Positions 1,434-45,700 of a DNA stretch of 45,700 nt are shown here, piece by piece. This stretch comes from a virus (Duplodnaviria > Heunggongvirae > Uroviricota > Caudoviricetes): IMG/VR virus record IMGVR_UViG_2563366840_000010, positions 1 through 45,700 of that record. The stretch is one strand, 5' to 3'. The position numbers and the translations under genes are program-made. Each line of letters opens with the position of its first letter. The first letter of the stretch is position 1. Below the pieces are notes generated by a model that saw nothing but the letters and a program-made list of their open reading frames with translations, did no database searches and was not told the origin of the DNA.

Positions 1434-1672
1434 CCAACCTGCCCGGGCAGGGAGCGGAGACGGCGCATGCCGGTCATCGCTGTGGCCACGTAGCTCGCCT
1501 TTCGGTTCACCACCTCCACCCAGACTTTCACGCCTTCAACCTTCACCGTATAAGTCTCTTTCATCTTGCTTCGCCCATAGTCGCCATATGTTTGCAAGTG
1601 AGCTGCCAGCGCGATGTCGCATGCTTGGCGAGCTAAAGGTGATTGCTTACTTCCTCGATTGATCAGTCGCAT
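1430..1672 (-). CDS. hypothetical small phage protein (80 aa)
   Basis: ORF with AGGAG 5 nt upstream of ATG at 1672; stop overlaps the xis-like start (operon-like). Confidence 0.45.
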   Translation of the reverse strand: MRLINRGSKQSPLARQACDIALAAHLQTYGDYGRSKMKETYTVKVEGVKVWVEVVNRKASYVATAMTGMRRLRSLPGQVG

Positions 1673-1710
1673 ATAATCTCCTTGAGGGAGGGGTACCCCT
1701 CCCGGTTTCG

Positions 1711-2829
1711 TCAGGCCACGTATTCCGGTTTCATATCCGCCAGGGTGATGCTGAATTGATCGTGCAGTTCATCGCCTAAGTGACGCTTTGAAGATGCAAG
1801 CATGCGCTCGGCTTCAGCGAACCGTTCGGCTGCATGCGGCTCGTCGGGCTGGGGCAGGGATTTAATAGCCTCCTCAACCTTGTTGCGTGCATCCACTAGG
1901 TAATAACGCTTTACGGCTTTGTTTTTCAGCTCGGTGAATAGTGCGGATCCCAGCGTAGCTTTCGCCGTTTCAATGTCGGCACGCAGCGATTTGGCGCTAT
2001 CCACGTCCTGAGCAGATTCGATGCGTTCGCGGAAATCATCGGCAAGAGAGTCGACATTTACCGACGATTCCTGTGCGCTTTGCGTGGTTGTGACGGTGTC
2101 ACCTGAGATATCAGCCAGGCTAACGCGTTGCGGCGTTGGGTTGATCTCTTTTTCTGTGCGCTGTTCAATCTCATCAGGGGTGTACACACCAAGAACAACT
2201 GCAGGGCAATATAGGCGCGCCCAGTATTTGAGTGCCAGATAAGCGATCTGCTGTTTCGGGTTTGATACCCAAAGTGGAGAATTACGTGTGATTACGCTGG
2301 AGAGGAAAACAGGCTCTCCCCAGGTGATATCACTTTCACCGCGAATAACGGCACCTACCCGTACCGACAGTCCTTGTTCATCAGCACTTTCCCAACCGCG
2401 TACCATTTCTTTCTTGTCGTACGTCCCGCCACCTTTCGCAGGCTTTTTAACGGTTATCTCGCGGCTGCTGGCACATTTCGACCAGTCGCCCTCGTACTCA
2501 TAGTGAAAGCGGCCAACGATGGCGTTTGAGCTGGAGATCACCGCATTAACCAGTTGCGCTTCGTATCCCAGGACACCGTTAACCAGGTGCGTCTTTTGCG
2601 CCACGGCGTAAGGGTTCATACCCCACTGCATCGCCTGCATGATGATGGCCATGCAGTCTGCCGGATTGCCGCGGAGGTGCTCAGGCACCGTTACGGCTGC
2701 CTGTGCCATCAACCCGGCGACAGACTGAAGCTGGGTTAAAGCCTGCACGTTGAAAATGGCATTGCTGGCTGAGATCGTGTTTGGAGTCTGCTGTTCAGCG
2801 GTTACGATATTCGTGTTTTCCATCATCAT
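1711..2829 (-). CDS. recT: RecT-like single-strand annealing recombinase (372 aa)
   Basis: Start overlaps the stop of the upstream RecE-like gene as in recET operons; central region has RecT-like character by eye; family call is from motif recollection only. Confidence 0.65.
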   Translation of the reverse strand: MMMENTNIVTAEQQTPNTISASNAIFNVQALTQLQSVAGLMAQAAVTVPEHLRGNPADCMAIIMQAMQWGMNPYAVAQKTHLVNGVLGYEAQLVNAVISSSNAIVGRFHYEYEGDWSKCASSREITVKKPAKGGGTYDKKEMVRGWESADEQGLSVRVGAVIRGESDITWGEPVFLSSVITRNSPLWVSNPKQQIAYLALKYWARLYCPAVVLGVYTPDEIEQRTEKEINPTPQRVSLADISGDTVTTTQSAQESSVNVDSLADDFRERIESAQDVDSAKSLRADIETAKATLGSALFTELKNKAVKRYYLVDARNKVEEAIKSLPQPDEPHAAERFAEAERMLASSKRHLGDELHDQFSITLADMKPEYVA

Positions 2830-2834
2830 TCCCC

Positions 2835-5800
2835 TTATGCCTGAGTACGCAGCGCTTCAAGGCGGCGCAGGTCGAAGTCGTTCAGTTCGTCGGTGTAGTC
2901 AGCAGTGATTGGCGCTGGCCATTCACCTGTGTCGAATCCGGTTGCGATATTGCGCATCGCTTTGCGGTACTCGAGCATACCCAGCTCCAGTAGTTCAGCG
3001 GATGCCTCGATGATGGCGATCCAGTGGTAGTTCTCGTCTTTGTTGACGAAAATCCAGAAGAACTGATCCAGCGCTGCGGTTTCGCAGTACATAGCCGCGC
3101 TCAGGTGATAATCACGTTCAATAATTTCCCGGTGTAGCCTGGCGCGCAGGCTTTCCTGCTTAACATTCCACATGCTGATGGTTTTCAGGTCTGCACCTAT
3201 ACGCACGCCATCCAGGTCGATCTCAAGGTCAGGGCGCACACGAACTTCCAAGCCCGTCTCCTCGTCAAAACCAAAGTAGCTCACCTCAACGGCTCGGCTA
3301 GGGTGGGTCAGCAGCATGCCGGCGGTCGGGTGTGCCAGAAGCGCTTTTTGAATATTCAGCGCGGTGCTCAGCTGCTGGCGGGTGACCAGCACTTTTCCTT
3401 CCGGGTTATCGCGCCAGGCATCCAGCAGTTCGTCGGCAAATACGGCATCTGGTTTGACTGCCTTCACGGCCTGGATCATGTCTGCTTTGGTACCGGACAC
3501 TTTCAGTGGTGCCGGTTTCTGTGCTTCCTGAGCCACAAGGTCAGGGTTGATGATTGCCAACTGCTCCAGTAGCGCGTCACGGCTGCCGCTGGTTTTAACC
3601 GGCGGCGGCAGGGTGGCGTTGTACTCTTTAATGCATGCCTTCATTGCCGTCGCCGTCTGCTTCTGGTCACCATCAATACGCTGGAAGTCAGCTGGCAGCG
3701 CCATATAGTTCTGTGCCGTTTCTTCCAGGTTAGCGCCAAGCGGAACCTGCGGCGGCAGGGTGGCGTTGTACTCTTCCAGTAACACCTTGATGTCGTCGGC
3801 AGACAGCAGCGCCGGCAGGCTGGCATTGTGCTCATCGATAAAGGCGCGCAGGGTCGCGGCCGTTGTGAATGCGCCTTCAGGGATCACCGGTTCAACGCTG
3901 AATTCTGCGTCCAGTAGTTCAGGCTGCAACGCCAGCGCATGCACCAAGTTGCCCATGTCCAGCACCGCTGAGCGCTCTTTGACGATGGTTTTCTCTACGT
4001 GGCGCGCATTGAAGTACATCAGCGAAACGCGCGCATCTTTCACCTGGGTTGAGCTGATGCCGTTGGCGGCGTGGTAAACCTCGTTTGGCAGCCCTTCATA
4101 GCGGCCTGGCTCGAAATAAGCGGGATAAACAACAGCTGGTTCGTCAGATTGCGCTTCTGGCTCGGTTTGTGCTGCAACTGGTTCGGTTTGGCTTACAGAA
4201 TCGCTATTTTTGGCGACAGAATCCGTATTCTGGTTTACATCGTCCTTCTGGCTGGTATCTGACTCTTCACCAGACTCCAGACTGCTTTCGCCTGGCTGTA
4301 CTTCATCACCAGCTTGTTTTTCATCACTGACAGTTTCTTGAACCTGCACATTGCTGGTGGTCTCCGAAGCCTTTTTCGTGCCATGAGTTGCTGAGTTCTG
4401 CAGCAAAGCCGTAACGTCGAATATTCCGTTGCCGACATTTTTAACCAGTTCTTGTTCGACTTTCTGCGGTTGTGCTGCCGCTTCCTCTGCGCGGCGGCGT
4501 GCTCCTTCTTCACGCACGCGTTGCAGGTTCTCTTCGTGAGTGCAGAAGGATTTGCGCGGAGACTCCTTACCTTCAGGTTGGGGAATTTCCTGTGCTGCGG
4601 GTTCAGCCTCATGCAACGGCAATAACTCGACCGCGGAATTGAACGCGGCTGTCATGGTCTGGTTAACAAATTCCAGGTGAGCGACAGGAGTTAAATGAAT
4701 ATTTTCCGGTGCGATACGTACCAGGTTAAAAATAGCCGTGCGGTTAACACCCAGAACGCCTGGCTGATTGCGCAGGATGTTGCTCCATGATTTCCATGGT
4801 TCTTCTTTTTTGGTCACGATTTCTTTAGCGCGACGAAGAATGCTGCCCGGGATCTCGAAGTGGTTGAAGTCCATAGGCAGAAGGGCACACGCAATCTCTA
4901 AATCGAGAGTGTCCAGTGTGTGGTGTGCGTCAGGTCCACGGTCAGTGACGTAACCGCCGTCGGCATTAGTGCCGGAATCAGTACGCTGCACACTACTGAT
5001 GCGATTACCGGCGGCCCATTCGCGAACGAGGATACCGCGGTCGATGTGAACTGTAGCGAACCACAATTTCAAAAACTGGATTAAGGTTGCGAGTTCAGGG
5101 ATTTTTCCATCGACAGGGAAGACTTTCTTAACGGCATTCACGACTTTATGAATATCGTGCTCAATGGCTTTTTTGAATGCTTCCACATTCTCAGCTGCCA
5201 GCAGCAGGTTCTGGACGTACGCGTCATCGGTGTCCATCTCAAGGCGGACAATCTCATTTTTCTGCCCTGCGTCGATGTGATAGAGATATTCACCATCACC
5301 GATGAACTGAGCCAGTACGCGCTGGCGGAATGGCAGGGTGGCAACAACGATCAGGTTCGGTTGCTGTGTCTGCTGGGATTGCTCTTCGGTATCGACTTCA
5401 CCATCAACGACGCCACCTTCTGCCCGGCCGTTCTCGTCGGTCTGGATACCGTCCTCAACAGTGAGATCTTGACCCGTTGTAACGTCAGCAGCGTTGCTGG
5501 TTTCAGTTTTGAGCAACTGCAACTTACCACTGCGCCAGTCTTCTACCAGTTGATTGCGGTCACCGGCATCGGTGTTCACCCAGTCAGACATGAATGCAGC
5601 GATCAATCTTGGTTCGTGCTCTTCGTCTGGTGTGAAAATGTCCTTAACCGCCCGAATCATTTTCCACTCAGCATTCAGGCTGAGTTTGGCGGTCGCGGGC
5701 ACATCGTTCCTTGCCACAAGCAGGCTATGGAGATATGTATTGCCTTCATCCAGTGACATTTCGCTGGCAGCCAACTGCTGCTCTTTAGTGACGTGGGTTT

Positions 5801-6355: not shown

Positions 6356-6859
6356 TTATGAATTCCTGGCAAATGAACCATGATTCGCTTTGCGGAAGTC
6401 GCGTATTGCTTCCGCAGCCTTTTCTAATTCAATAAAAGTTCCTACCGTGAATCTTTTGCCATTAACTCGGCACATGGCTGTCCAGCGTTGTTTCCCTTTG
6501 TGCCAATAAACTCCTTTCACTCCGCTCGTATTATTTTTCTGAAGCGGTTTATTGAAGTTATTCTGTGAGCAAGTAGCCTCGCGGAGATTCTCCAGCCTGT
6601 TGTCAGAGCAATTTCCATTCACATGGTCAATCTGGTCTTCAGGCCATTTTCCGTGTGTATAAAGCCAGGCCAAGCGGTGTGCTCTGTATTTCTTTCCATC
6701 GATGATGATTCGTACATAGCCGCGCGTATCTAAATTTCCAGCAAAATCACCTGCGGTTATCCGTCCGCGATTTTTGAGCCATGTGAATGCTCCTGTTTCA
6801 GGCGAGTAGCTGAGCAATTCCTTCAGTCGTGCCAGTGATAATTTTTCTCGCATATTCAT
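6356..6859 (-). CDS. HNH endonuclease with AP2-like DNA-binding domain (~167 aa from internal ATG; ORF extends to 6913)
   Basis: HNH motif region DHVNGNCSDNRLENLREATCSQNN plus GVKGVYWHKGKQRWTA..EKAAEAI AP2-type segment. Confidence 0.8.
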   Translation of the reverse strand: MNMREKLSLARLKELLSYSPETGAFTWLKNRGRITAGDFAGNLDTRGYVRIIIDGKKYRAHRLAWLYTHGKWPEDQIDHVNGNCSDNRLENLREATCSQNNFNKPLQKNNTSGVKGVYWHKGKQRWTAMCRVNGKRFTVGTFIELEKAAEAIRDFRKANHGSFARNS

Positions 6860-6864
6860 CACCG

Positions 6865-7026
6865 TTAGCCTTCGTGAGCCATCTGGTCGTGCGAAGCGCA
6901 ACGTTTGGAGCAATACTCTTTTTCTTTGCGCGCCAGCTGTGAGCCGTTGCGATAGAGAAGGGTGCTCTTGATTACTTCCTCCGTTTTAACCGGCTTGCCG
7001 CAATATCCGCATTTCTTGTCTAACAT
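6865..7026 (-). CDS. small zinc-ribbon protein (53 aa, CxxC...CxxxC)
   Basis: Unlisted short ORF MLDKKCGYCGKPV...CSKRCASHDQMAHEG; GGAGG 7 nt upstream of the ATG; fits between two co-oriented genes. Confidence 0.5.
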   Translation of the reverse strand: MLDKKCGYCGKPVKTEEVIKSTLLYRNGSQLARKEKEYCSKRCASHDQMAHEG

Positions 7027-7712: not shown

Positions 7713-7832
7713 ACTGCTGGTTAAATCCTTTCGGCGAGTGCTGCTGTTCTTTATTACCAAATTTTTGATTTACAATGATTTTATAAGCGTTATTGAGAGC
7801 TTGCTTTATAGACATTAATATCTCCTTATGTG

Positions 7833-9236
7833 TTATTGACGATTAAAGTAGTTAGAGTTTAGCTCTTTAGGGAAGTAGTGTTTACGATTTACCCAAACAA
7901 ATCCATCAACTTTTGATATCACAGCGACATCAACAGGCCCACCGACAGTTTCATAATCATGTGATACTTTTCTTTTGAATGCAGTGATGTTCACTAATGA
8001 TTCGGCCATATACGCAAGATCTGCCTTCCCAAGTGATTGCAACATCGATATCATTTTATTTGTATGGTTATTAACAATATAGCTTTCAAGTTTAGTATCG
8101 TGATCTTGTAAAAGTACGTTTTTGAGTTCCTCAATTTCACTGGAGAAGTGATTGGCTAGTACTCCATTGTTCATTGCAGGGAAAATATTGCTAGAAACAT
8201 AATGATTAAGCCGATCAAAAACTTCCTCTGTAAGAGTTCTGTTAAAATTAATGATGTTAGGGTTGCACCCATCAATGAAAGTTACTACTTCATCTTCTTG
8301 AGCAAATGGTATAACAAACCCCATATTGGTTACCTCATTATGGGATTTATCATCAATATTATGGATCATCAATTTGTTTTTAAAAATGCCGTAGATATGA
8401 AGAGTGCAAATGGAAGGGTAATATTCTTCCTCTCCATAACCTGTTATAACAATCCCTGAATATGTACGACTAGCATGGACTTTGAAAATTAAACAAGTGG
8501 AATATAATATGACTTTTTCCATAAGCTCTTGCTGTATATTTTCACAGTTATCAAGAACAATAATTGATGAAATGTATGGCGATATTAAATCTTGTATATA
8601 TGCTAAAGCATCATTAAACTCTTCTGTATCAAACCCTTCGAAAAAGAGATTATTCCTTAAGATTCCTATCTCTAAATCAAAGGCTTGCTTAACTATGTTT
8701 TGAAAAATAACATTGTCGAGTTCAACGGCGGGGTTCATTGTTAAATAGTTTACTACATTATTATCATTAATGTATCTCATCAAACCTTTGAGGTTATCAA
8801 CAACAAGGTTTATAACGCAAGCCTCTCTCATTTCATTTGTTATAAGGTCTGAGTTACCATTGATGAATTTTACAAAGTCATTAACATATTCTTTAATGGT
8901 AGGGAAACTAGTTTTCCCCAATTGTTTTCTATAGGATTTAATTATAAGTTCCCACGGTGCGCCACCCAGTGTCGCATTATTATAAATCATGATCCCCACG
9001 GGATGGTGTTTAGATAGTTCGAATAGTTTTTCCGCACTATTATTTATTTTTACTAATCTATTATGCTCTGTGGTGACTGCAGAGTCAGCAGCAAGGGCGA
9101 TTCCAGTATTATTTATTACAACAATCTCAGCTGTCATTGCAAAACATCCCGTGTAGTAGTGATAAATATTAATTAAATTGATAGTTTTTTTCAATCTAAC
9201 ATAAATGGCGGAATCACCCCCCAGTAAAGACATCAT
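7833..9236 (-). CDS. AT-rich accessory (moron) protein with proteasome-beta/HslV-like motifs; likely true start at 9137 (434 aa)
   Basis: Long ORF co-oriented with and 43 bp downstream of the repressor gene; visibly AT-rich; internal start gives MTAEIVVINNTGIALAADSAVTT; C-terminal VGGPVDVAVISKVDGFVWV. Confidence 0.7.
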   Translation of the reverse strand: MMSLLGGDSAIYVRLKKTINLINIYHYYTGCFAMTAEIVVINNTGIALAADSAVTTEHNRLVKINNSAEKLFELSKHHPVGIMIYNNATLGGAPWELIIKSYRKQLGKTSFPTIKEYVNDFVKFINGNSDLITNEMREACVINLVVDNLKGLMRYINDNNVVNYLTMNPAVELDNVIFQNIVKQAFDLEIGILRNNLFFEGFDTEEFNDALAYIQDLISPYISSIIVLDNCENIQQELMEKVILYSTCLIFKVHASRTYSGIVITGYGEEEYYPSICTLHIYGIFKNKLMIHNIDDKSHNEVTNMGFVIPFAQEDEVVTFIDGCNPNIINFNRTLTEEVFDRLNHYVSSNIFPAMNNGVLANHFSSEIEELKNVLLQDHDTKLESYIVNNHTNKMISMLQSLGKADLAYMAESLVNITAFKRKVSHDYETVGGPVDVAVISKVDGFVWVNRKHYFPKELNSNYFNRQ

Positions 9237-9278: not shown

Positions 9279-9662
9279 TCAGTCCCCCTGCGAGCGAATC
9301 CGCCCCTTCATGTACTTCTCGTACAGCTCATCTAACTCTTTCAGGCGAAGCGCAAAAATGCGGAGCATGTTCTGCTGCTCTTCTTCCGGTAACTGGCGGT
9401 AGAGCTCGAGCAAACGCTGTTCGTCCGGTTTGAGACCGTCTTTCTCTCCAACGTCTTCACCGAGTAGCCAGGCGACAGAAATACCAACAGCGTCGGCTAT
9501 GGCCAGTGCCGATTTCTTACTAATCACGCCTTTTTTGAACCAGCCGTTTACGGCCTGAGGGGTGACTCCAGCTATTCTTGCCATGTCTGCTTTGGTAACG
9601 CCGCGATCAGTGATCTCAGTAAGGCGCTCCACCAGAACGAGGTTGGGTTCTTCTTTTCTCAT
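9279..9662 (-). CDS. CI-like prophage repressor, HTH-XRE type, no peptidase domain (127 aa)
   Basis: HTH segment KADMARIAGVTPQAVNGWFKKG; divergent from cro-like gene; the listed 217-aa ORF is an upstream extension without RBS. Confidence 0.8.
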   Translation of the reverse strand: MRKEEPNLVLVERLTEITDRGVTKADMARIAGVTPQAVNGWFKKGVISKKSALAIADAVGISVAWLLGEDVGEKDGLKPDEQRLLELYRQLPEEEQQNMLRIFALRLKELDELYEKYMKGRIRSQGD

Positions 9663-9670
9663 ATGGTCAT

Positions 9671-9736
9671 TGTAAATATTTGGTTTATGCACGCAATAAA
9701 TCCAAAGTTTGCATGAAGTATAAATCTGTGGTTTAC
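9671..9736. promoter_or_regulatory. oR-like operator region: TGTAAATatttgGTTTATG (9671..9689) and TATAAATctgtgGTTTAC (9719..9736) plus divergent promoters
   Basis: Repeated sites matching the oL copies; candidate pR TTGCAT-17-TTTACT upstream of cro. Confidence 0.5.
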
Positions 9737-9764
9737 TTCTGCTATCAATAAGCAGGAGAAGCAC

Positions 9765-9983
9765 ATGTCCGCACTCGATAAAGCAATTAAAGCCGCTGGC
9801 TCTGCCAGAAAGCTCAGCATCGCGCTTGGTGTGACGAGTATGTCTGTAAGTCATTGGAAGAATCGTGACCAAGGGATCGTCCCGCCAAGCTATATCTTCC
9901 CGATTTTCAAAATGACAGGCGTAACCCCCCACGAGCTGCGCCCTGATCTCTATCCAAATCCCACTGACGGATTACCAAAGTAG
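9765..9983 (+). CDS. Cro-like / YdaS-family HTH regulator (72 aa)
   Basis: AGGAGAAG RBS; small HTH protein divergent from the repressor. Confidence 0.8.
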   Translation: MSALDKAIKAAGSARKLSIALGVTSMSVSHWKNRDQGIVPPSYIFPIFKMTGVTPHELRPDLYPNPTDGLPK

Positions 9984-37663: not shown

Positions 37664-39067
37664 ATGCCGTCAATTATCCAGGACGCAATAACTTCTCTTT
37701 TGGGGGGAGATACCAGCGATGACTGGCAGGGGCAGTTACGGCCCAGCTCATTCAGAGGTGTGCCATTTGCAATTGTTGCTGAGGAAGGGAGCCACGGCCG
37801 ACGCCAGGCGGTACATGAATATCCCTACCGTGATACAGCCTGGATAGAGGATATCGGGCGGGCAACACGGCGATTTGTTATTCGCGGTTTCTTGATCCAG
37901 AACAGCCAGGTTTACGGCGGCGGCGATGCTATCACGCAGCGCCAGTCACTGATTGAAGCCTGTGAACAAAAAGGTAGCGGTACGCTTGTCCATCCGACAC
38001 TGGGCGAATTAACGGTTTCCATCCCTGAGAATGGTTTGCGTATTTCCGGTTCGATGGAGAACGGGCGAGTATTTGAATTTACCCTGATGGCAATTGAATC
38101 AGGGCTTAAAGTGTTTGCTGTCACGGGCAGTACCGTTGCAGGCGCCACGGTGAAAACCAACTATCTGAAACTGGTCAGCACTGCTGTGCTGAGCACGATT
38201 GCCAGAGTTAAGAGTGAAATCCGCGGTGTCACACAGGCTATAAACACCATCAGAGGCACGGTCACGTTCTGGACTAACATGGTTGACAGCACCATCAGTC
38301 AGGTCACGAATCTCAGCAATGTCCTGAACTCCACGTTCGGGAATACCCGGTACGGACGTTACAGTAAAGGCTCTGTGGGCGGTAGTTCCTCTGCTGTTGC
38401 TGGCAAATCGTCAGTTGCTGATGTGGATGATGAGAGAGCACTGGCTGACAAGGTAACAGCCCAGTCGGTAATGGACCGGAAAAATGTTACCGACAGGTCG
38501 AGCCAGCTTAGCAGCTCCAACACACCTGATGAGTTTGTCCAGGGCGTCGCCGACGTGGTAAACGCAATTCTTAACAGCGCCGGCAGCGTTAATGACCGAA
38601 TCACAGCGCTGGAAAAACTGGCTAATTCAATCAGCACGGAGTACCAGCAGTCCGACAGCAGCAAAGCGATTTCGGCGACCATGAACACGCTGATTGTTGT
38701 GCTATGTACTGGTGCCATGACCAGTGCCGCTGCGGACTCCAGACCAGCCAGTACAGACGAGGCAGAAGAGTTAACTCAACGAGTTTCTGTGCAACTTGAT
38801 ACGGCGCTGGTTCTGGCTGGAGACCGCGCGGACGATGATATGTATAACGCGCTTCTCGCCGTCAGATCGGCATTCCTTTCTACGATGAGTGAGCGTGCTT
38901 CTGGTCTGAGCGAGCTTCTGCAGGTTACTACCGCTCAGCCGCTTCCGGCGCTGACGCTGGCAAACCGATTATACCAGGATGCCACCCGTGCAGATGAACT
39001 GGTACAGGAAGCGCGCGTACCGCATCCGGCGTTTATGCCGACAACCATGAAGGTACTGAGGCAATGA
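37664..39067 (+). CDS. DNA circulation protein, Mu gpN-like (467 aa)
   Basis: GGAGG RBS before ATG 37664; position after tape measure in a Mu-type tail module. Confidence 0.75.
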   Translation: MPSIIQDAITSLLGGDTSDDWQGQLRPSSFRGVPFAIVAEEGSHGRRQAVHEYPYRDTAWIEDIGRATRRFVIRGFLIQNSQVYGGGDAITQRQSLIEACEQKGSGTLVHPTLGELTVSIPENGLRISGSMENGRVFEFTLMAIESGLKVFAVTGSTVAGATVKTNYLKLVSTAVLSTIARVKSEIRGVTQAINTIRGTVTFWTNMVDSTISQVTNLSNVLNSTFGNTRYGRYSKGSVGGSSSAVAGKSSVADVDDERALADKVTAQSVMDRKNVTDRSSQLSSSNTPDEFVQGVADVVNAILNSAGSVNDRITALEKLANSISTEYQQSDSSKAISATMNTLIVVLCTGAMTSAAADSRPASTDEAEELTQRVSVQLDTALVLAGDRADDDMYNALLAVRSAFLSTMSERASGLSELLQVTTAQPLPALTLANRLYQDATRADELVQEARVPHPAFMPTTMKVLRQ

Positions 39068-40149
39068 ATGCAGACAGCGATCTGGATGTTGTTTCTTTGA
39101 CGGTCGACGGCAAAATCATCGAGGGGTGGGATTCTGTCCGGGTAACGCGGGGTATTGAGCGTTTTCCCTCTGATTTCGATCTTGGGCTAATGGATTACTT
39201 CCCTGGCAACGAAGATCGTCAACTTGTTGAAGAGGGAATGTCTTGTGAAGTTCGTATCGGAGATGATCTGACACTGACGGGATATGTTGATGACTGGGAA
39301 CCCGCACTATCGCGCTCCCGCCATGAGGTCCGCGCCACGGGCAGGAGCAAATGTCAGGACCTGGTGGATTGCTCAGCCGAGTGGCCTAACAACGTCATCA
39401 ATGCCAGTAATGCGCTTGAAATTGCTTCTCGCCTGGCATCCTACTACGGCATCACCGTAACCACGGATGTTGATGAACTTGTGAAGGTACCCCAGTTCAC
39501 TCTGAACTGGGGTGAGTCTCCGCAAGAAGTCATCGATCGGGTGGCCAGATGGTCTGCTCTGCTTTACTACGATCAGCCCGATGGAAACCTGTTACTGACC
39601 CGGGTGGGAACACGTCGTGCGGCAAGTGGGATAGCCGAAGGGGTAAATGTCGAGCAGGCATACTACCGCAAATCGATGGCTGACAGGTTTTCAGATTATG
39701 TCGGTGTATCAATGAGCGTTTCTCCAATTGCAGGGTATTCGCCTGATACGGCCTATGACGCTGTGACTCTGGCAACGGCGAGAGATCCGGAGGCCGCCCG
39801 CATGCGGTACCGAAAACATATATCGATTGTGGAAAGTACCCTGATGGCTACTCAACAGGCACAAAGTGCGATCGACTGGGAAATGAACCGGCGGTACGGA
39901 CGTTCAAAACAGCTCTCGGTAACCATCGATTCCTGGCGGGATAAAGACGGGAAACTGTGGGAACCAAACACATTGATCCCCGTTGATCTTCCCACCTTAC
40001 GGTTGCCGAAGACTGAATTGCTACTGGCAGAAGTCACCTATATGCGCGATGACTACGGCACCCATGCACGCATGACGCTGATGCCGCCTGAAGCATTCTC
40101 CGTTCAGCCATATGCCTTCTACCAGAACCTGGCGGGATTCAATACATGA
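39064..40149 (+). CDS. baseplate hub protein, Mu gpP / P2 gpD-like (361 aa)
   Basis: Position and size in a Mu-type tail gene order. Confidence 0.75.
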   Translation: MNADSDLDVVSLTVDGKIIEGWDSVRVTRGIERFPSDFDLGLMDYFPGNEDRQLVEEGMSCEVRIGDDLTLTGYVDDWEPALSRSRHEVRATGRSKCQDLVDCSAEWPNNVINASNALEIASRLASYYGITVTTDVDELVKVPQFTLNWGESPQEVIDRVARWSALLYYDQPDGNLLLTRVGTRRAASGIAEGVNVEQAYYRKSMADRFSDYVGVSMSVSPIAGYSPDTAYDAVTLATARDPEAARMRYRKHISIVESTLMATQQAQSAIDWEMNRRYGRSKQLSVTIDSWRDKDGKLWEPNTLIPVDLPTLRLPKTELLLAEVTYMRDDYGTHARMTLMPPEAFSVQPYAFYQNLAGFNT

Positions 40150-40730
40150 AGCAACTATTTAAACATGCAGCGATCAGGATCGCCGGCATGCTGGGGATTG
40201 GCCGGATCACGGCTATGAAAGATGGTGGGGTGGTGCAGTCTATCCAGTACCAGACTCCGCTGGAGGTGGCCAGCGCTCCGCGGATGGCAGAATTTGGCTT
40301 TTCATCCGGCCTGCCGTCAGGGACTGACGTGGTTCTGGCTTTTATTGGCGGTGATCGTTCCAGCGCGGTGGTAATTGCGTCCAACCATCAGGGGTTCCGT
40401 CATACAGGCCTGAAAGCGGGCGAAACGGTCATGTATAACCAGTGGGGCCTTAATATTCTCCTGACGGAGAAGGGGATCTTCCTGGATGCAAAGGGCCAGA
40501 ATGTTGAGGTCAATAACGCCACTAACGTGACCATCAATGCCAGCCAGGGGATCCTTGCAAATACCCCGATCCTGAGGTGCACGGGTGACATTGTTGATAA
40601 CTGTGAAACCAATACCCGAACACTGAAAGAGCTGCGGGATGCACATAATGACCATGATCATGTGGTTAAAAATGCCCAGAGTGGCAATGACAATATCCGC
40701 AGCCAAAAAACAGAGGATCAGGTGACATGA
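40146..40730 (+). CDS. baseplate spike/assembly protein V-like (194 aa)
   Basis: Position and size. Confidence 0.7.
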   Translation: MKQLFKHAAIRIAGMLGIGRITAMKDGGVVQSIQYQTPLEVASAPRMAEFGFSSGLPSGTDVVLAFIGGDRSSAVVIASNHQGFRHTGLKAGETVMYNQWGLNILLTEKGIFLDAKGQNVEVNNATNVTINASQGILANTPILRCTGDIVDNCETNTRTLKELRDAHNDHDHVVKNAQSGNDNIRSQKTEDQVT

Positions 40731-41164
40731 GTGACATCGCTTCATTCTGGAATGTGGATGAGATGTTTGCTGACTGGCAGAAAGGGCTGGGTGAACTCAC
40801 CACGGGGAACGATTTACAGACTGCAATACTGGACAGCCTGTTTACCGACAGGCTGGCGCGCGCTGACGATGATTATGAGGATAGCGATCGCCGCGGCTGG
40901 TGGGGGGATTCCGGGGAGGAATCCCAACTGGGATCCCGGCTGTGGCTGCTACGGCGGAAAAAACTGACCCCGGATGTAGCAAAAAAAGCGGAGGAATACT
41001 CGAGTGAAGCGCTCAACTGGTTAAAGGTTGATGGCGTTGTCAGCGAGGTTATTCCTGTTGCAAGGATCGTCCTGCCTGACCGGCTCAATCTCATTATCCG
41101 CTATCAGGCACCGGGGAAGGACTGGCAGGAATTCAGGTTTTACTGGATATGGGAGCAACGTTAA
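40727..41164 (+). CDS. baseplate protein, Mu gp46 / gpW-like (145 aa)
   Basis: Position and size. Confidence 0.7.
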   Translation: MSDIASFWNVDEMFADWQKGLGELTTGNDLQTAILDSLFTDRLARADDDYEDSDRRGWWGDSGEESQLGSRLWLLRRKKLTPDVAKKAEEYSSEALNWLKVDGVVSEVIPVARIVLPDRLNLIIRYQAPGKDWQEFRFYWIWEQR

Positions 41165-41165
41165 T

Positions 41166-42308
41166 ATGCCGTTTAAACGACCGACGCTGAGCGAACTCCG
41201 CGACGAAAACCGGAAATTTATGCAGGCGGAGCTTGAGGATGTTGGTGCGCTCCTGCGCTTCGCGAACCTGAAGGTACTGGCTGACATGGATGCGGGGATG
41301 GGGCATCTGCATTACGCCTACCTTGACTATATTGCCCTGCAGACAAACCCGTTTACCTCTACCGATGAGTATCTCGCCGGGTGGATGGCCCTTAAGCAGG
41401 TATTCAGAAAACCAGCTGCAGCGGCGAAGTCGCCTGCGGTACAGGCTAGTGGCAGTGTTGACTGTATTATCCCTGTTGGCTCGATCATTAACCGCGGGGA
41501 CGGATACCAGTACCGGACGGATGCAGATCTTAAAATTCAGGCAGATGGATTTGGTATCGTCGCGGTGACGGCCATACTGCCGGATATTACCAGTGATGTA
41601 ACGGGTGGAGGCGCGCGCGGTAACGCTGATGCCGGGACCATAATGACCCTGGACGCGAATATTGCTGGCGTGGATCCACAGGTAACGTTACTGTCCGCTG
41701 CGACCGGCGGAGCCGATATTGAAACGGAAGAGGATTTTCGCAGTCGTGGCTTGCTGGCATGGCAGAATCCGCCTCAGGGTGGAAGCGACGCCGATTATAA
41801 AAAATGGGCGCTTGAGGTTTCGGGCGTCACCCGCGCGTGGGTAAAGCGGCGTCTGAACGGGGCCGGGACCGTTGGCGTGTATATCATGTGTGATCGGAAT
41901 GACAATGGTGGGTTTCCGGTCGGTACCGACGGAATATCCCAACTTGAGGACTGGGGGGCTGTTAAAGCCACCGGAGACCAGCTCGCTGTCGCCGACCACA
42001 TCTATCCGCAGCAGACAGACACTGCCATTGTTTTCGTATGTTCCCCGATCAAGAAAGTCATCAATATTGAAATCTCTGGGATCAAAAATGCCGACAGCAC
42101 CACAGTTCAGGGGATAAAAGACGCGCTGACGGCGCTGTTTTTTGATGAAGCTAACCCTGATGGTTCTGGGAAAGTTTACCTCTCTGATATTAACGGGAGT
42201 ATCGGCGGTGTTAGCGGCACGACGGGCTATATTCTTAACTCTCCGACGGCCAATATCACCTTTGCTGTTGGCGAAATTCCGGTGCTTGGCGGGGTGAATT
42301 TTGTATGA
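41166..42308 (+). CDS. baseplate J-like protein, Mu gp47 (380 aa)
   Basis: Listed ORF start trimmed to ATG 41166 just after the upstream stop. Confidence 0.8.
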   Translation: MPFKRPTLSELRDENRKFMQAELEDVGALLRFANLKVLADMDAGMGHLHYAYLDYIALQTNPFTSTDEYLAGWMALKQVFRKPAAAAKSPAVQASGSVDCIIPVGSIINRGDGYQYRTDADLKIQADGFGIVAVTAILPDITSDVTGGGARGNADAGTIMTLDANIAGVDPQVTLLSAATGGADIETEEDFRSRGLLAWQNPPQGGSDADYKKWALEVSGVTRAWVKRRLNGAGTVGVYIMCDRNDNGGFPVGTDGISQLEDWGAVKATGDQLAVADHIYPQQTDTAIVFVCSPIKKVINIEISGIKNADSTTVQGIKDALTALFFDEANPDGSGKVYLSDINGSIGGVSGTTGYILNSPTANITFAVGEIPVLGGVNFV

Positions 42309-42898
42309 GCCTCTTTTCAAAAAATGATTATGCCGGTGCGCTTGGTGCGCTGCTACCGACGGGCAGGGCGTGGCCCCGGTCGCAAAGAACGGTACAGGCT
42401 GCGGTATTACGGGCACTGGGCAGCGCGTTTCAGCGTTCTGACAACGATGCGCAAAGCCTGATTACTGGTGCTTTTCCCCCTACAGCGACGGTAATGTTGT
42501 CAGAATGGGAAAGCTCTCTGGGGTTACCAGATGATTGTGCGATTGGTGAATCCGGTGGCGTCAGCGATCGCCAGCGCGCCGTGGTGGCAAAGTTAATCAG
42601 CACCGGCGGCCTGAACCGCGATTATTACATCCGGGTGGCTGCAGCTCTTGGTTATACCATCACTATCACACAGTTCCGGCCCGCTATGAGTGGCATGTCA
42701 GTATGCGGTGATGCGCTTAACGGTGACGAGTGGCCATTTACCTGGCGGATAAATGCGCCACAAACAACGATCAAGTATTCGCTTGCTGGCGCGTCCTACT
42801 GCGGAGATCCGCTCGCATCGTGGGGCAATAAACAACTGGAGTGTTCAATCAACAAAATTGCCCCATCCCATCTGAACATCATTTTCAATTATTCATAA
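42305..42898 (+). CDS. tail protein, Mu gp48 / YmfQ-like (197 aa)
   Basis: Position before tail fibre, as in e14 ymfQ. Confidence 0.7.
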   Translation: MSLFSKNDYAGALGALLPTGRAWPRSQRTVQAAVLRALGSAFQRSDNDAQSLITGAFPPTATVMLSEWESSLGLPDDCAIGESGGVSDRQRAVVAKLISTGGLNRDYYIRVAAALGYTITITQFRPAMSGMSVCGDALNGDEWPFTWRINAPQTTIKYSLAGASYCGDPLASWGNKQLECSINKIAPSHLNIIFNYS

Positions 42899-42949
42899 CT
42901 GATATTTCCCCCTCTGATTTTATCGCTTAACACTAAGTGAGGATTAACT

Positions 42950-43282
42950 ATGCTCCGAATCGGGCAAGTCGAAGCCACTGCAACGCAGGATGGCAAATAT
43001 ACTGATGGAAGTGTTGCTGGTGGTATTGCCGCAACGAGGCTGCGGGCAGCAGCGTTTAATGCCATGCAGGAAGAGTTAGCGCATATCGTAGAGTCAGCAG
43101 GATTGGCGCTCGACATTAACGATATGACTCAGGTTTTAAAAGCCATTCAAAAACTCACACTGAGCCGTGCAAACCCATTTGCCGATATCAAATCAGATGG
43201 TGCAGCGGCGATTTCTACGGCTCTCACAAACCTTGGTTTGGGAGAAGCGGCAGCACTACATGTTGGGATACCTGAAACGTAG
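42950..43282 (+). CDS. tail fibre, conserved N-terminal part only (110 aa), stops 13 codons after the inversion crossover site
   Basis: Prophage tail-fibre N-terminal character; crossover site lies inside the coding sequence. Confidence 0.6.
   Translation: MLRIGQVEATATQDGKYTDGSVAGGIAATRLRAAAFNAMQEELAHIVESAGLALDINDMTQVLKAIQKLTLSRANPFADIKSDGAAAISTALTNLGLGEAAALHVGIPET
43221..43246. promoter_or_regulatory. left inversion crossover site (gix/hix-like): CTCTCACAAACC-TT-GGTTTGGGAGAA
   Basis: 26-bp imperfect palindrome with AAACC-NN-GGTTT core. Confidence 0.6.
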
Positions 43283-45079
43283 ACTCCGGCCACGCCCTCA
43301 ACAGCCTGGGGTAATTGAAAGGTTACGTCTCTCACTGGTAAAATCCACCCAGATCTGGCTGAGGCTGTCCCGACGAATATATCGCCGCAATCACGGAGAG
43401 ATTCTTTCCGTAGCTGTGTTCATAGGCGCGCGGAGTGCGCCATGCGTGGTTTGTTGGCTTATGGCGATCCTCCTTTAGCCTCTGGTGGGGGGTTGGTTAA
43501 GAATTCCTATGGCCTAACAGGTATCGACCCAAAGGGAGGTTACTGAGCGTTAACGACCGGTGCTATGGTAGAGATGAATAACACATGTTCAATTTTTGGT
43601 GAGTCATTTTATTGAGGGTAATCCATACCAAGGAACGTGTCTTTTAACTAAGTCATAATGCCTTTCTCCTGATTAATGCCGTTGTAAATAACGAACTAGA
43701 GGGATGGAAGGCATCAGACGCTAACGAATAGAATTTAAATGCTAACAGGAAGGTTTAGGCTGCACCGCCACACGAAAAAATCCTTATTGCTGGCGATATT
43801 CCGCCGCATTCCTGTTCAGATGTTCCTCCACTCAATCAGGCTGGGCTTACTGTCTTCCCTGCATCAGATATAAAGTTATTGAAAAATCTGGCCAACGAAC
43901 ACGGTAACAGCATACATAGCCCCGAAAAAGGAGCTTCGGATGGTCTGAAAGCTCCGGAACTGTAGCCAGATAATATGACCCCTAATGACCCGTTCACGCC
44001 GTACCTGGATGGTGATGCCGGGGAATCGGATATTGAAAGGCCTACGCAGCCGGCAGTTCCGGTAGGCGCGGAAGAGGCGCGGCGCCAGTAACTGATTGCG
44101 TCAGCGCGTCCATCTAACCGACCGCATCAGTTGGACTGGCAGGTCCGACGTGAACCAGCGTACGTACAACCTACCATCTCTAATGCAGTGCACGGATGGA
44201 TGGAATCGCTGCATGAAACAGTGACCGGCGCTGCGCTTGTTCTCCGTTTGCCGCAGCAGTCGGCTGCGTAGCAGTTTCCATAACTGGTTTACCACAATCA
44301 TCATCCTGCTATAGGGTATACAGATCGATAGTGGTCATATTTTCAGGCGACTGTTCCTGACCTTTGAGTTGTCTCGAAGCTGCCGTTTCGGGCCTATATA
44401 TGCTTTCAACGCGATGGTTTGCCAGATATTTCAATAATTTTCTTTCTGATGCAGTAAATTCAATATGACCAGCATTCGTGGGACCAGGAATATCTGACCA
44501 CGCAGGCGCCGCAATACCGACGGCCACACGAATATATTCTGTTGGCGGTTAAAGATTAAACTCCCTCACAATATTTTGATTATCATCGGTAGCATCTCAT
44601 GAATCCGAACCATCGGATTTATTTTTAACAATGACTTCCATCATCAGGAAGGCATTATGCTATGGGCTATAGAGATGTTCGTTCGTATGATTCCCCCACA
44701 ATCAACCTATACCCTAACAATTCACTTAGTGTAATTCAGCGCTACCATGTCACTAGCTGATGATATGCTGCGACCAGAAGTTGAATCGGAACACGTTGGC
44801 GCATCGTCCGTGACCACGCACCGCCGCTCAGAGCCAAAAAAAGCGTCGCGAGAAGCAGAAAAAGTAAGCGTGGAGCAGACCCCTCGCTTGGCATACGAGA
44901 TGCTGAATATAACACTGCGTATATGAGGCAATTTAGTTGGCGTATACGCCTTTGCCAGATCCGGCTGTACTTCCGCGGTAAGAAACGCCACATAGCATTT
45001 AAGACTGGCAGAAGACGGAGTGGCCGAAATCCGAGGTTCCCCCGTCCCAACAGGTAATGCTGAGCCTTCTCCCAAACCA
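43234..45079. other. ~1.85 kb invertible segment between inverted crossover sites; no intact ORF >125 aa
   Basis: Flanking sites share 15 nt (cttctcccaaaccaa) in inverted orientation; central dinucleotides TT and AA. Confidence 0.5.
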
Positions 45080-45092
45080 ACCTTTTTTATAA
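45067..45092. promoter_or_regulatory. right inversion crossover site: TTCTCCCAAACC-AA-CCTTTTTTATAA
   Basis: About 20/26 match to Salmonella hixL as recalled; inverted relative to the left site. Confidence 0.55.
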
Positions 45093-45151
45093 CCATCAAA
45101 AATCTGGTGATGCTTCGCCGTTTCTCCTGTTTTCATAACAGGAGAAATCCC

Positions 45152-45700
45152 ATGATTTACGGTTATGCCCGAGTATCAACAAACCACCAGGACACTGAAT
45201 TGCAACTAACGGCGCTCAAGTCAGCGGGTTGTGAGAAAATTTTTGAAGAGCATGCCAGCGGGAGGAAATCGAATCGGCCGGTTCTAAAACGGCTGATCGC
45301 CACTATGCAGCCGGGGGATGAACTGGTGGTCTGGAAGCTGGACAGGATAGGCCGCAACGTTCTGCATGCGCTGTTGATGTTCCAGCAGTTACAGGAAAAG
45401 GGTATCAACTTCCGCAGTATTACCGATGGCGTGGATCTCAAAACAGCCAGCGGCCGCTATAACTTTCGTAACATCCTTTCCGCAGCACAATATGAATCTG
45501 ATCTTAATAGCGAACGTACCTTAGCAGGGCTGGCCGTAGCCAGGGCAAAAGGGCGAGTTGGTGGTCGCAGGCCTAAGTTCACGGATGAGCAATGGCGGGA
45601 AATGGGGGAGCGGATGGCAACCGGTGAATCACGACAAAGCGTATCAAAAACGTATGGAGTAGGGCTCTCAACTCTGTATAAAAAGTTTCCAGCTAGCTGA
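45152..45700 (+). CDS. serine DNA invertase, Hin/Gin/Pin/Cin family (182 aa)
   Basis: MIYGYARVSTNHQ catalytic-Ser start, LVVWKLDRIGRN, C-terminal HTH; AGGAGAAA RBS. Confidence 0.9.
   Translation: MIYGYARVSTNHQDTELQLTALKSAGCEKIFEEHASGRKSNRPVLKRLIATMQPGDELVVWKLDRIGRNVLHALLMFQQLQEKGINFRSITDGVDLKTASGRYNFRNILSAAQYESDLNSERTLAGLAVARAKGRVGGRRPKFTDEQWREMGERMATGESRQSVSKTYGVGLSTLYKKFPAS

Follow-up and report, generated by a model that had tools for sequence, protein, structure and literature searches.

A prophage tail-fibre inversion switch of Escherichia coli KTE119 whose deposited interior is very probably an assembly-made mixture of its two orientations

Inversion of a DNA segment exchanges the receptor-binding end of a tail fibre, together with its chaperone, in the G segment of phage Mu, the C segment of phage P1 and the P segment of the cryptic prophage e14. 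The small serine recombinases of the Din group have their active-site serine near residue 9-10; in these systems the 5' part of the invertase gene also holds a recombinational enhancer bound by Fis, where DNA conservation is confounded with that of the coding sequence. Tail-fibre switching of this kind has been described for E. coli prophages, with a tabulated consensus of the 26-bp crossover sites (PMC4134206), and both orientations of the e14 P segment coexist in clonal cultures (PMC4272514). The locus considered here belongs to a stretch of 45,700 nucleotides, referred to as the window, which spans an entire prophage; base 1 is the start of the integrase and 45700 the stop of the invertase. 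An initial annotation of its right end had proposed an invertible tail-fibre segment of the Hin/Gin/Pin type, comparable to Mu G or e14 P, and had suggested that the switch might be degenerating or might carry non-canonical cargo. The first proposal is supported by an e14-like crossover site and by a match of the invertase to Gin. The second is refuted, as 98.85% of the bases between the sites derive from an intact Sv-Tfa / Tfa'-Sv' segment read in one or the other of its orientations. We conclude with high confidence that the locus is an intact tail-fibre inversion switch and that its deposited interior is a mix of the two orientations made during assembly (Table 1). The underlying system is apparently intact and of a kind that is already known.

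The inverted 26-bp sites that had been placed near the invertase are confirmed and are hix/gix/pix-like. They form an inverted pair with a common 2-bp core (TT/AA) and are complementary at 20 of 26 positions, with a perfect match over the inner half-site and the central dinucleotide (14 nt, TTGGTTTGGGAGAA). This 14-mer is present in exactly two copies in the window, on opposite strands, where 0.00 are expected from 100 shuffles. A generic repeat finder run on the window did not list the site pair; a direct pattern search did recover it. The left site fits the tabulated consensus (PMC4134206) and is identical at 24 of 26 positions to the e14 site inside stfP (CTCTCGAAAACCTTGGTTTGGGAGAA). The inner half of the right site, TTCTCCCAAACC, recurs in the e14 P segment, at its right end, and in eight related loci. 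The adjacent invertase has the architecture of a small serine recombinase, with a catalytic Resolvase domain (PF00239, E = 3.6e-39, residues 2-135) and a C-terminal HTH_7 (PF02796, E = 1.5e-9, residues 138-181). Its N-terminus reads MIYGYARVSTNHQ, and it matches Mu Gin (PDB 3UJ3) over residues 1-181 with E = 1.4e-56. At the DNA level, identity reaches 99.8% with the HK225 phage invertase and 93.6% with phi80 pinL, and the same protein adjoins yciI in many genomes.

Table 1. Features of the inversion locus in window coordinates; rows marked orientation A refer to the segment as reconstructed in that orientation
Feature	Position	Strand	Details
Constant N-terminal part of tail-fibre gene	42950..43246	+	99 codons; ends at inner edge of left site
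Left 26-bp crossover site, pix/gix-like	43221..43246	+	CTCTCACAAACCTTGGTTTGGGAGAA = CTCTCACAAACC TT GGTTTGGGAGAA; inside fibre gene
Invertible-segment interior as deposited	43247..45066	.	1820 nt; base-by-base superposition of both orientations, non-biological
Variable fibre end A, Tail Collar	43247..43669 (orientation A)	+	Collar PF07484, E = 2.2e-15; with 42950-43246 gives 239 aa
Tfa-A, tail-fibre assembly protein	43669..44271 (orientation A)	+	200 aa; Caudo_TAP PF02413, E = 6.7e-32
Tfa-B	44243..44686 (orientation A)	-	147 aa; Caudo_TAP, E = 3.9e-30; expressed after inversion
Variable fibre end B, Gp53-like_C	44707..45066 (orientation A)	-	PF21882, E = 2.6e-12; after inversion gives 218 aa
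Right 26-bp crossover site	45067..45092	-	TTCTCCCAAACCAACCTTTTTTATAA = TTCTCCCAAACC-AA-CCTTTTTTATAA; outer half degenerate
DNA invertase, Hin/Gin/Cin/Pin serine-recombinase group	45152..45700	+	182 aa, intact; Resolvase + HTH_7

As deposited, the fibre ORF (42950-43282) encodes 110 residues. The first 99, its constant part, share 48% identity with the start of StfP from e14 and are also the N-terminal residues of intact fibres found in nature, such as P0004 (239 aa). The initial annotation was correct that the fibre is truncated past the crossover, but the reading frame continues for 11 residues and a stop codon, not 13 codons; it was also correct that the opposite orientation extends the fibre, by a computed 114 residues and not about 112. 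The largest interior ORF does have 125 residues, as had been reported (44722-45099, minus strand, in the reading frame of the constant part), and no long ORF lies in the 1820 nt between the sites. The product of 72 residues at 44309-44527 (minus strand), previously read as a possibly decayed tail-fibre-assembly fragment, does resemble Tfa proteins (44% identity to one and 33% to the other). The decay part of that reading fails: the fragment looks like Tfa because two Tfa genes that share motifs overlie each other there in the mosaic, and in this region the two orientations agree at 37% of positions.

The absence of any ORF above 125 aa in 1.82 kb, together with a fibre ORF that stops so soon after the site, is what might be expected of a truly decaying segment that has lost its fibre and chaperone genes to mutation, or in which non-canonical cargo has taken their place. 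Real decay does occur elsewhere: in a few relatives (L014, L015) an IS66 or IS1 element has inserted into the segment, and stfE of e14 is a pseudogene. The divergence seen here is of a different character. In sensitive BLAST searches the interior aligns to intact invertible segments at ~63% identity over 91% of its length with zero net indels. As reference we used the intact 1820-nt segment of E. coli TW10690 (locus L003, positions 1497-3316), taken between its own half-sites. Mismatches against one orientation of this reference look random, with 216 transitions to 397 transversions (ts:tv 0.54), the three codon positions about equally affected and each of the 12 substitution types occurring 44-68 times. 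A divergence of ~37% with these properties and no net indels is unlike natural decay, and the flanks, as far as the edges of the sites, share 99.85-100% identity with other E. coli. The uniform substitution spectrum had raised the suspicion of a randomly mutated sequence, which was dropped on finding that the interior aligns equally to both strands of the TW10690 segment (63.8% and 63.6%). The marks of decay, namely indels, frameshifts, a transition bias and the lack of an intact relative that explains the sequence, were not found, and almost all bases can be traced to two orientations of one intact segment. We therefore consider real decay exceedingly improbable; the deposited interior as real DNA is essentially excluded, and the truncated fibre and missing cargo are not real features of the organism.

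The mosaic can be followed base by base. The TW10690 segment has exactly the length of window positions 43247-45066. Compared position by position, the interior is identical to it at 62.2% in forward orientation and 62.0% in reverse complement, and the TW10690 segment agrees with its own reverse complement at only 25.6%. The proportion of interior bases accounted for by one or the other orientation, given above, compares with a mean of 43.6% (maximum 46.2%) in composition-preserving shuffles and with 41-49% when the register is shifted by 1-3 nt. The mosaic begins and ends exactly at the recombination sites. Among 1337 informative positions the forward base was picked at 670 and the inverted base at 667, with a runs z of 0.08. 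The picks show no base preference and are independent between mirror positions, and no heterogeneity was found in bins of 20-200 sites nor autocorrelation (~0) at lags 1-100. The choice of orientation at each base behaves like an independent fair coin.

The same structure is visible without a reference. The interior is 62.3% self-reverse-complementary, where a 50:50 per-base mix predicts 62.5%, and likewise 62.5% identity to each orientation. A scan of 90,200 symmetry centres in the window returned a single outlier, 0.677 at 44156.5, which is the exact midpoint of the sites, against a background mean of 0.251 (sd 0.026) and a next-best centre of 0.38. This palindrome signal was present in 0 of 18 related loci, whose maximum (0.435) falls at the convergent ends of the Tfa genes. 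The interior positions explained by neither orientation, 21 of 1820, reduce to 16 distinct variant sites, of which 5 are seen twice, once on each side of the mirror axis, and 13 can be phased so as to be synonymous in a codon of a Tfa or fibre gene. This pattern points to a natural allele ~1% diverged from TW10690 as the true parent, and not to noise. A perfect parent was not found among the further references compared (L004, L006, L007, L017), which explain only 4 more of the 21 positions.

Deconvolution brings the genes back. When either orientation of the TW10690 segment is spliced between the window's own sites, the constant part runs in frame into a new C-terminal end: in orientation A this yields a Collar-domain fibre of 239 aa and, behind it, the 200-aa Tfa, and in orientation B a fibre of 218 aa with a Gp53-like_C end and, behind it, the 147-aa Tfa. 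In each case the unused fibre end and Tfa pair lies as a mirror image on the opposite strand. With a constant part of exactly 99 codons both fusions stay in frame; the left site falls within the fibre gene, and inversion exchanges its C-terminal end in frame. The two mirror cassettes, each a variable fibre end with its Tfa, are recovered after deconvolution only and are unreadable in the deposited string. The return of intact fibre ORFs, which the initial annotation had expected from resequencing if its reading were wrong, is thus obtained computationally, as in either orientation the fibre is in frame and both Tfa genes are intact. The natural fibre P0004 is the same as reconstruction A through residue 163. 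Moreover, traces of all four restored proteins persist in the mosaic as weak tblastn ghost matches, which fall on either strand and at mirrored coordinates; those of Tfa-A, for example, fall at mosaic positions 429-1022 on the plus strand and 1296-799 on the minus strand.

The mosaic is present in a public genome. Window positions 37950-45700 are identical at 7751 of 7751 positions to KB732923.1, a 4.25-Mb scaffold of the E. coli KTE119 draft (GCA_000351905.1) that contains A, C, G and T only. The truncated 110-aa product, which reads 36 nt into the mosaic, is annotated there as ELF10010.1 / WP_001568798.1 ("hypothetical protein A1Y7_01777 [Escherichia coli KTE119]"), a single record. Random resolution of ambiguity codes during preparation of the dataset, or a synthetic decoy, would scramble the sequence after deposition, and random resolution of two-base codes would indeed yield independent 50:50 choices. 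Yet the public contig carries the same letters, and the deposited protein carries exactly this mosaic-derived sequence. Because the mosaic is present in a real public draft, it was not introduced downstream, and we give next to no weight to scrambling after deposition. Random resolution before submission is possible and forms part of the best explanation, the merging of the two orientations during assembly.

Elsewhere, the interior appears to have no counterpart. A megablast search of 5,426 complete E. coli genomes and of phages found matches to the flanks and the invertase but none to the interior, and an exact 64-mer of the mosaic was found neither in a viral contig collection nor in species-representative genome contigs. 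The flanks match a prophage of E. coli NCTC_13148 beside yciI-tonB, with 100% identity over 42900-43251 and 99.85% over 45047-45700. In the corresponding space, relatives hold a fibre end, two Tfa genes and a second fibre end. The same prophage occurs with intact segments at the same yciI-tonB site in six loci (L002, L005, L006, L011, L016, L019), and most of the places returned for the invertase beside yciI carry intact segments. Two of the six are other drafts with Broad-style accessions (L016, L019); that both are clean also counts somewhat against an origin of the mosaic in assembly. The features that mark an assembly artefact are found together: each base taken from one orientation, branches of equal length, boundaries at the sites, and a single deposited assembly.

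In the living prophage, the Gin/Pin-family invertase would invert the 1820-nt segment between the 26-bp sites and so join the constant 99-codon fibre start to either of two C-terminal ends, each with its own chaperone. During assembly, two paths of equal length may have been collapsed position by position, one of the two bases being taken arbitrarily wherever they differed; the per-base mixture destroys all four reading frames. Plain read-depth voting with short reads was considered as the source of the choices and is disfavoured, since it would correlate the picks over a read length and no correlation is seen. The uncorrelated picks argue for algorithmic tie-breaking or for random resolution of two-base ambiguities. 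Genomes of the Broad KTE series were presumably sequenced with Illumina and assembled with ALLPATHS or ALLPATHS-LG. Local ambiguities, mixed sites in the sample among them, are explicitly represented by ALLPATHS-LG (PMC3483556; PMC6434015); the papers on this assembler confirm such encoding and do not describe a flattening step. The 50:50 pick rate is not a measure of the orientation ratio in the culture. A literature search found no description of an artefact in which orientations are merged base by base.

We also considered a pure software artefact, in which the culture held a single orientation and the assembler mixed its path with its own reverse complement. Independent fair-coin picks point to an algorithm and not to read counts, and a graph of canonical k-mers treats a segment and its reverse complement as the same node. 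On the other hand, the perfect part of the inverted repeats is just 14 nt long, much shorter than the k-mers normally used in assembly. For this reason both directions of traversal need junction reads of both kinds, and the reads required for the second exist only if inversion has occurred. The exact coincidence of the mosaic with the recombination sites, and the coexistence of both orientations of related switches in clonal cultures (PMC4272514), also speak against a single orientation, which we regard as very unlikely. Junction reads of both kinds would mean that both orientations were in the culture; the switch was therefore probably inverting in the culture that was sequenced, and a merging of two real orientations remains our preferred reading.

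No new mechanism is at stake here, and the switch itself is biologically ordinary. The consequence lies in the databases: the KTE119 draft and RefSeq carry a 1.8-kb sequence that does not exist and at least one protein derived from it (ELF10010.1 / WP_001568798.1), and a mosaic of this kind would mislead any scan that looks for "degenerate" or "non-canonical" invertons. At the same time the mosaic retains both orientations and is an indirect sign of an active switch in the sequenced culture, and a self-reverse-complement test detects mosaics of this type without a reference. Whether the base-wise superposition of orientations is a systematic, undescribed failure mode of some draft-assembly pipelines is a more speculative matter, which we suggest only tentatively and think rather less likely than not to hold. 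If it does, a search of public assemblies for noisy palindromes (~62% self-reverse-complementary, with short inverted bounding sites) could show, with no need of a reference, which segments were actively inverting at the time of sequencing, and could flag bogus database proteins.

Among known systems, the P segment and PinE of e14 from E. coli K-12 are close to this locus in gene order (ymfQ(Gp48)-stfP-tfaP / tfaE-stfE-pinE), in the position of the nearly identical left site inside the fibre gene, in the identical inner half of the right site, and in segment size (1801 nt in e14 and 1820 nt here). They differ in the invertase, which here is 55% identical to PinE and closer to those of HK225 and phi80 (pinL). 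Whereas e14 is cryptic and its stfE a pseudogene, the prophage here is complete from integrase to invertase over 45.7 kb and its cassettes are intact after deconvolution. Mu G with Gin and P1 C with Cin share with this locus a serine invertase of ~182-193 aa, 26-bp sites with a 2-bp core, and a constant fibre N-terminus with alternative C-termini, each with its chaperone, in mirror arrangement. The fibre here is short, at 218-239 aa with a constant part of 99 aa, in contrast to the much longer S protein of Mu, and unlike in Mu G and P1 C its variable ends are of the Collar or Gp53-like_C type. The prophages of E. coli EC958 (PMC4134206) likewise have invertible segments of 2-3 kb with 26-bp sites and Collar-domain ends, and there too assembly was disturbed by mixed orientations. 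In EC958, however, the PacBio assembler gave extra contigs for the alternative alleles, whereas in KTE119 the alleles were merged base by base.

The window is a complete prophage in which lambdoid/Rac-like early genes are combined with a Mu-like baseplate and tail. An island of 33% GC at 8001-9000 houses a 467-aa ORF that found no match in either Pfam or PADLOC, and whose position is one where prophages typically carry morons or genes for exclusion or defence.

Features of the prophage, of the mosaic and of the invertase leader
Feature	Window position	Strand	Remark
Integrase	1-1194
RecT	1711-2829	-
RecE-like exonuclease VIII, 1129 aa	2835-6224	-
HNH_3 + AP2 protein	6356-6913	-
ORF, 467 aa	7833-9236	-	between early-left genes and cI-like repressor
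cI-like repressor	9279-9932
Mu-like tail genes			DNA_circ_N, Gp45, GP46, Baseplate_J, Gp48
'Hypothetical protein', 110 aa (ELF10010.1 / WP_001568798.1)	42950-43282		E. coli KTE119, L008 5001-5333; gene call on mosaic
ORF, 34 aa	43442-43546		L008 5493-5597; gene call on mosaic
Perfect 12-bp hairpin (TTTCTCCTGTT...AACAGGAGAAA region)	45120-45148		closely 5' of invertase ATG at 45152

The mosaic, the deposited mixture of both orientations of the invertible segment, has left its mark on public databases, which hold its 110-aa and 34-aa gene calls as real proteins; both originate from the artefact. In the 90% cluster that holds the window's fibre N-terminus (the cluster of P0001), many members come from the ends of contigs and are recorded as 'partial', some of them under the wrong label 'integrase, partial'. 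Such a pattern fits the idea that assemblies from short reads usually break off at the invertible segment.

The initial annotation had proposed a decaying switch for the window; genuine cases of such degradation are found in other E. coli strains, where the invertible segment of the same switch is interrupted by IS66 (L014, 248-2518) or by IS1 (L015, 2751-3448). In two related prophages, one from E. coli Z22-7 (L001, 3341-3943) and one at L018 (2491-3432), no genes are called at the expected place of the left fibre end and its Tfa, and the left half-site is missing from both. Because neither shows the palindrome signal, the self-reverse-complement peak that marks the mosaic, these gene-less stretches are not the same artefact.

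The Shine-Dalgarno sequence of the invertase gene, AGGAGA, is enclosed by the 12-bp hairpin. Folding of window 45105-45165, in which a short 5-bp stem also forms, gives a predicted minimum free energy of -22.7 kcal/mol (z = -4.65 relative to shuffled sequences), and a hairpin so placed could throttle translation of the invertase. In e14 of K-12, by contrast, no such hairpin is present 5' of the invertase gene pinE.
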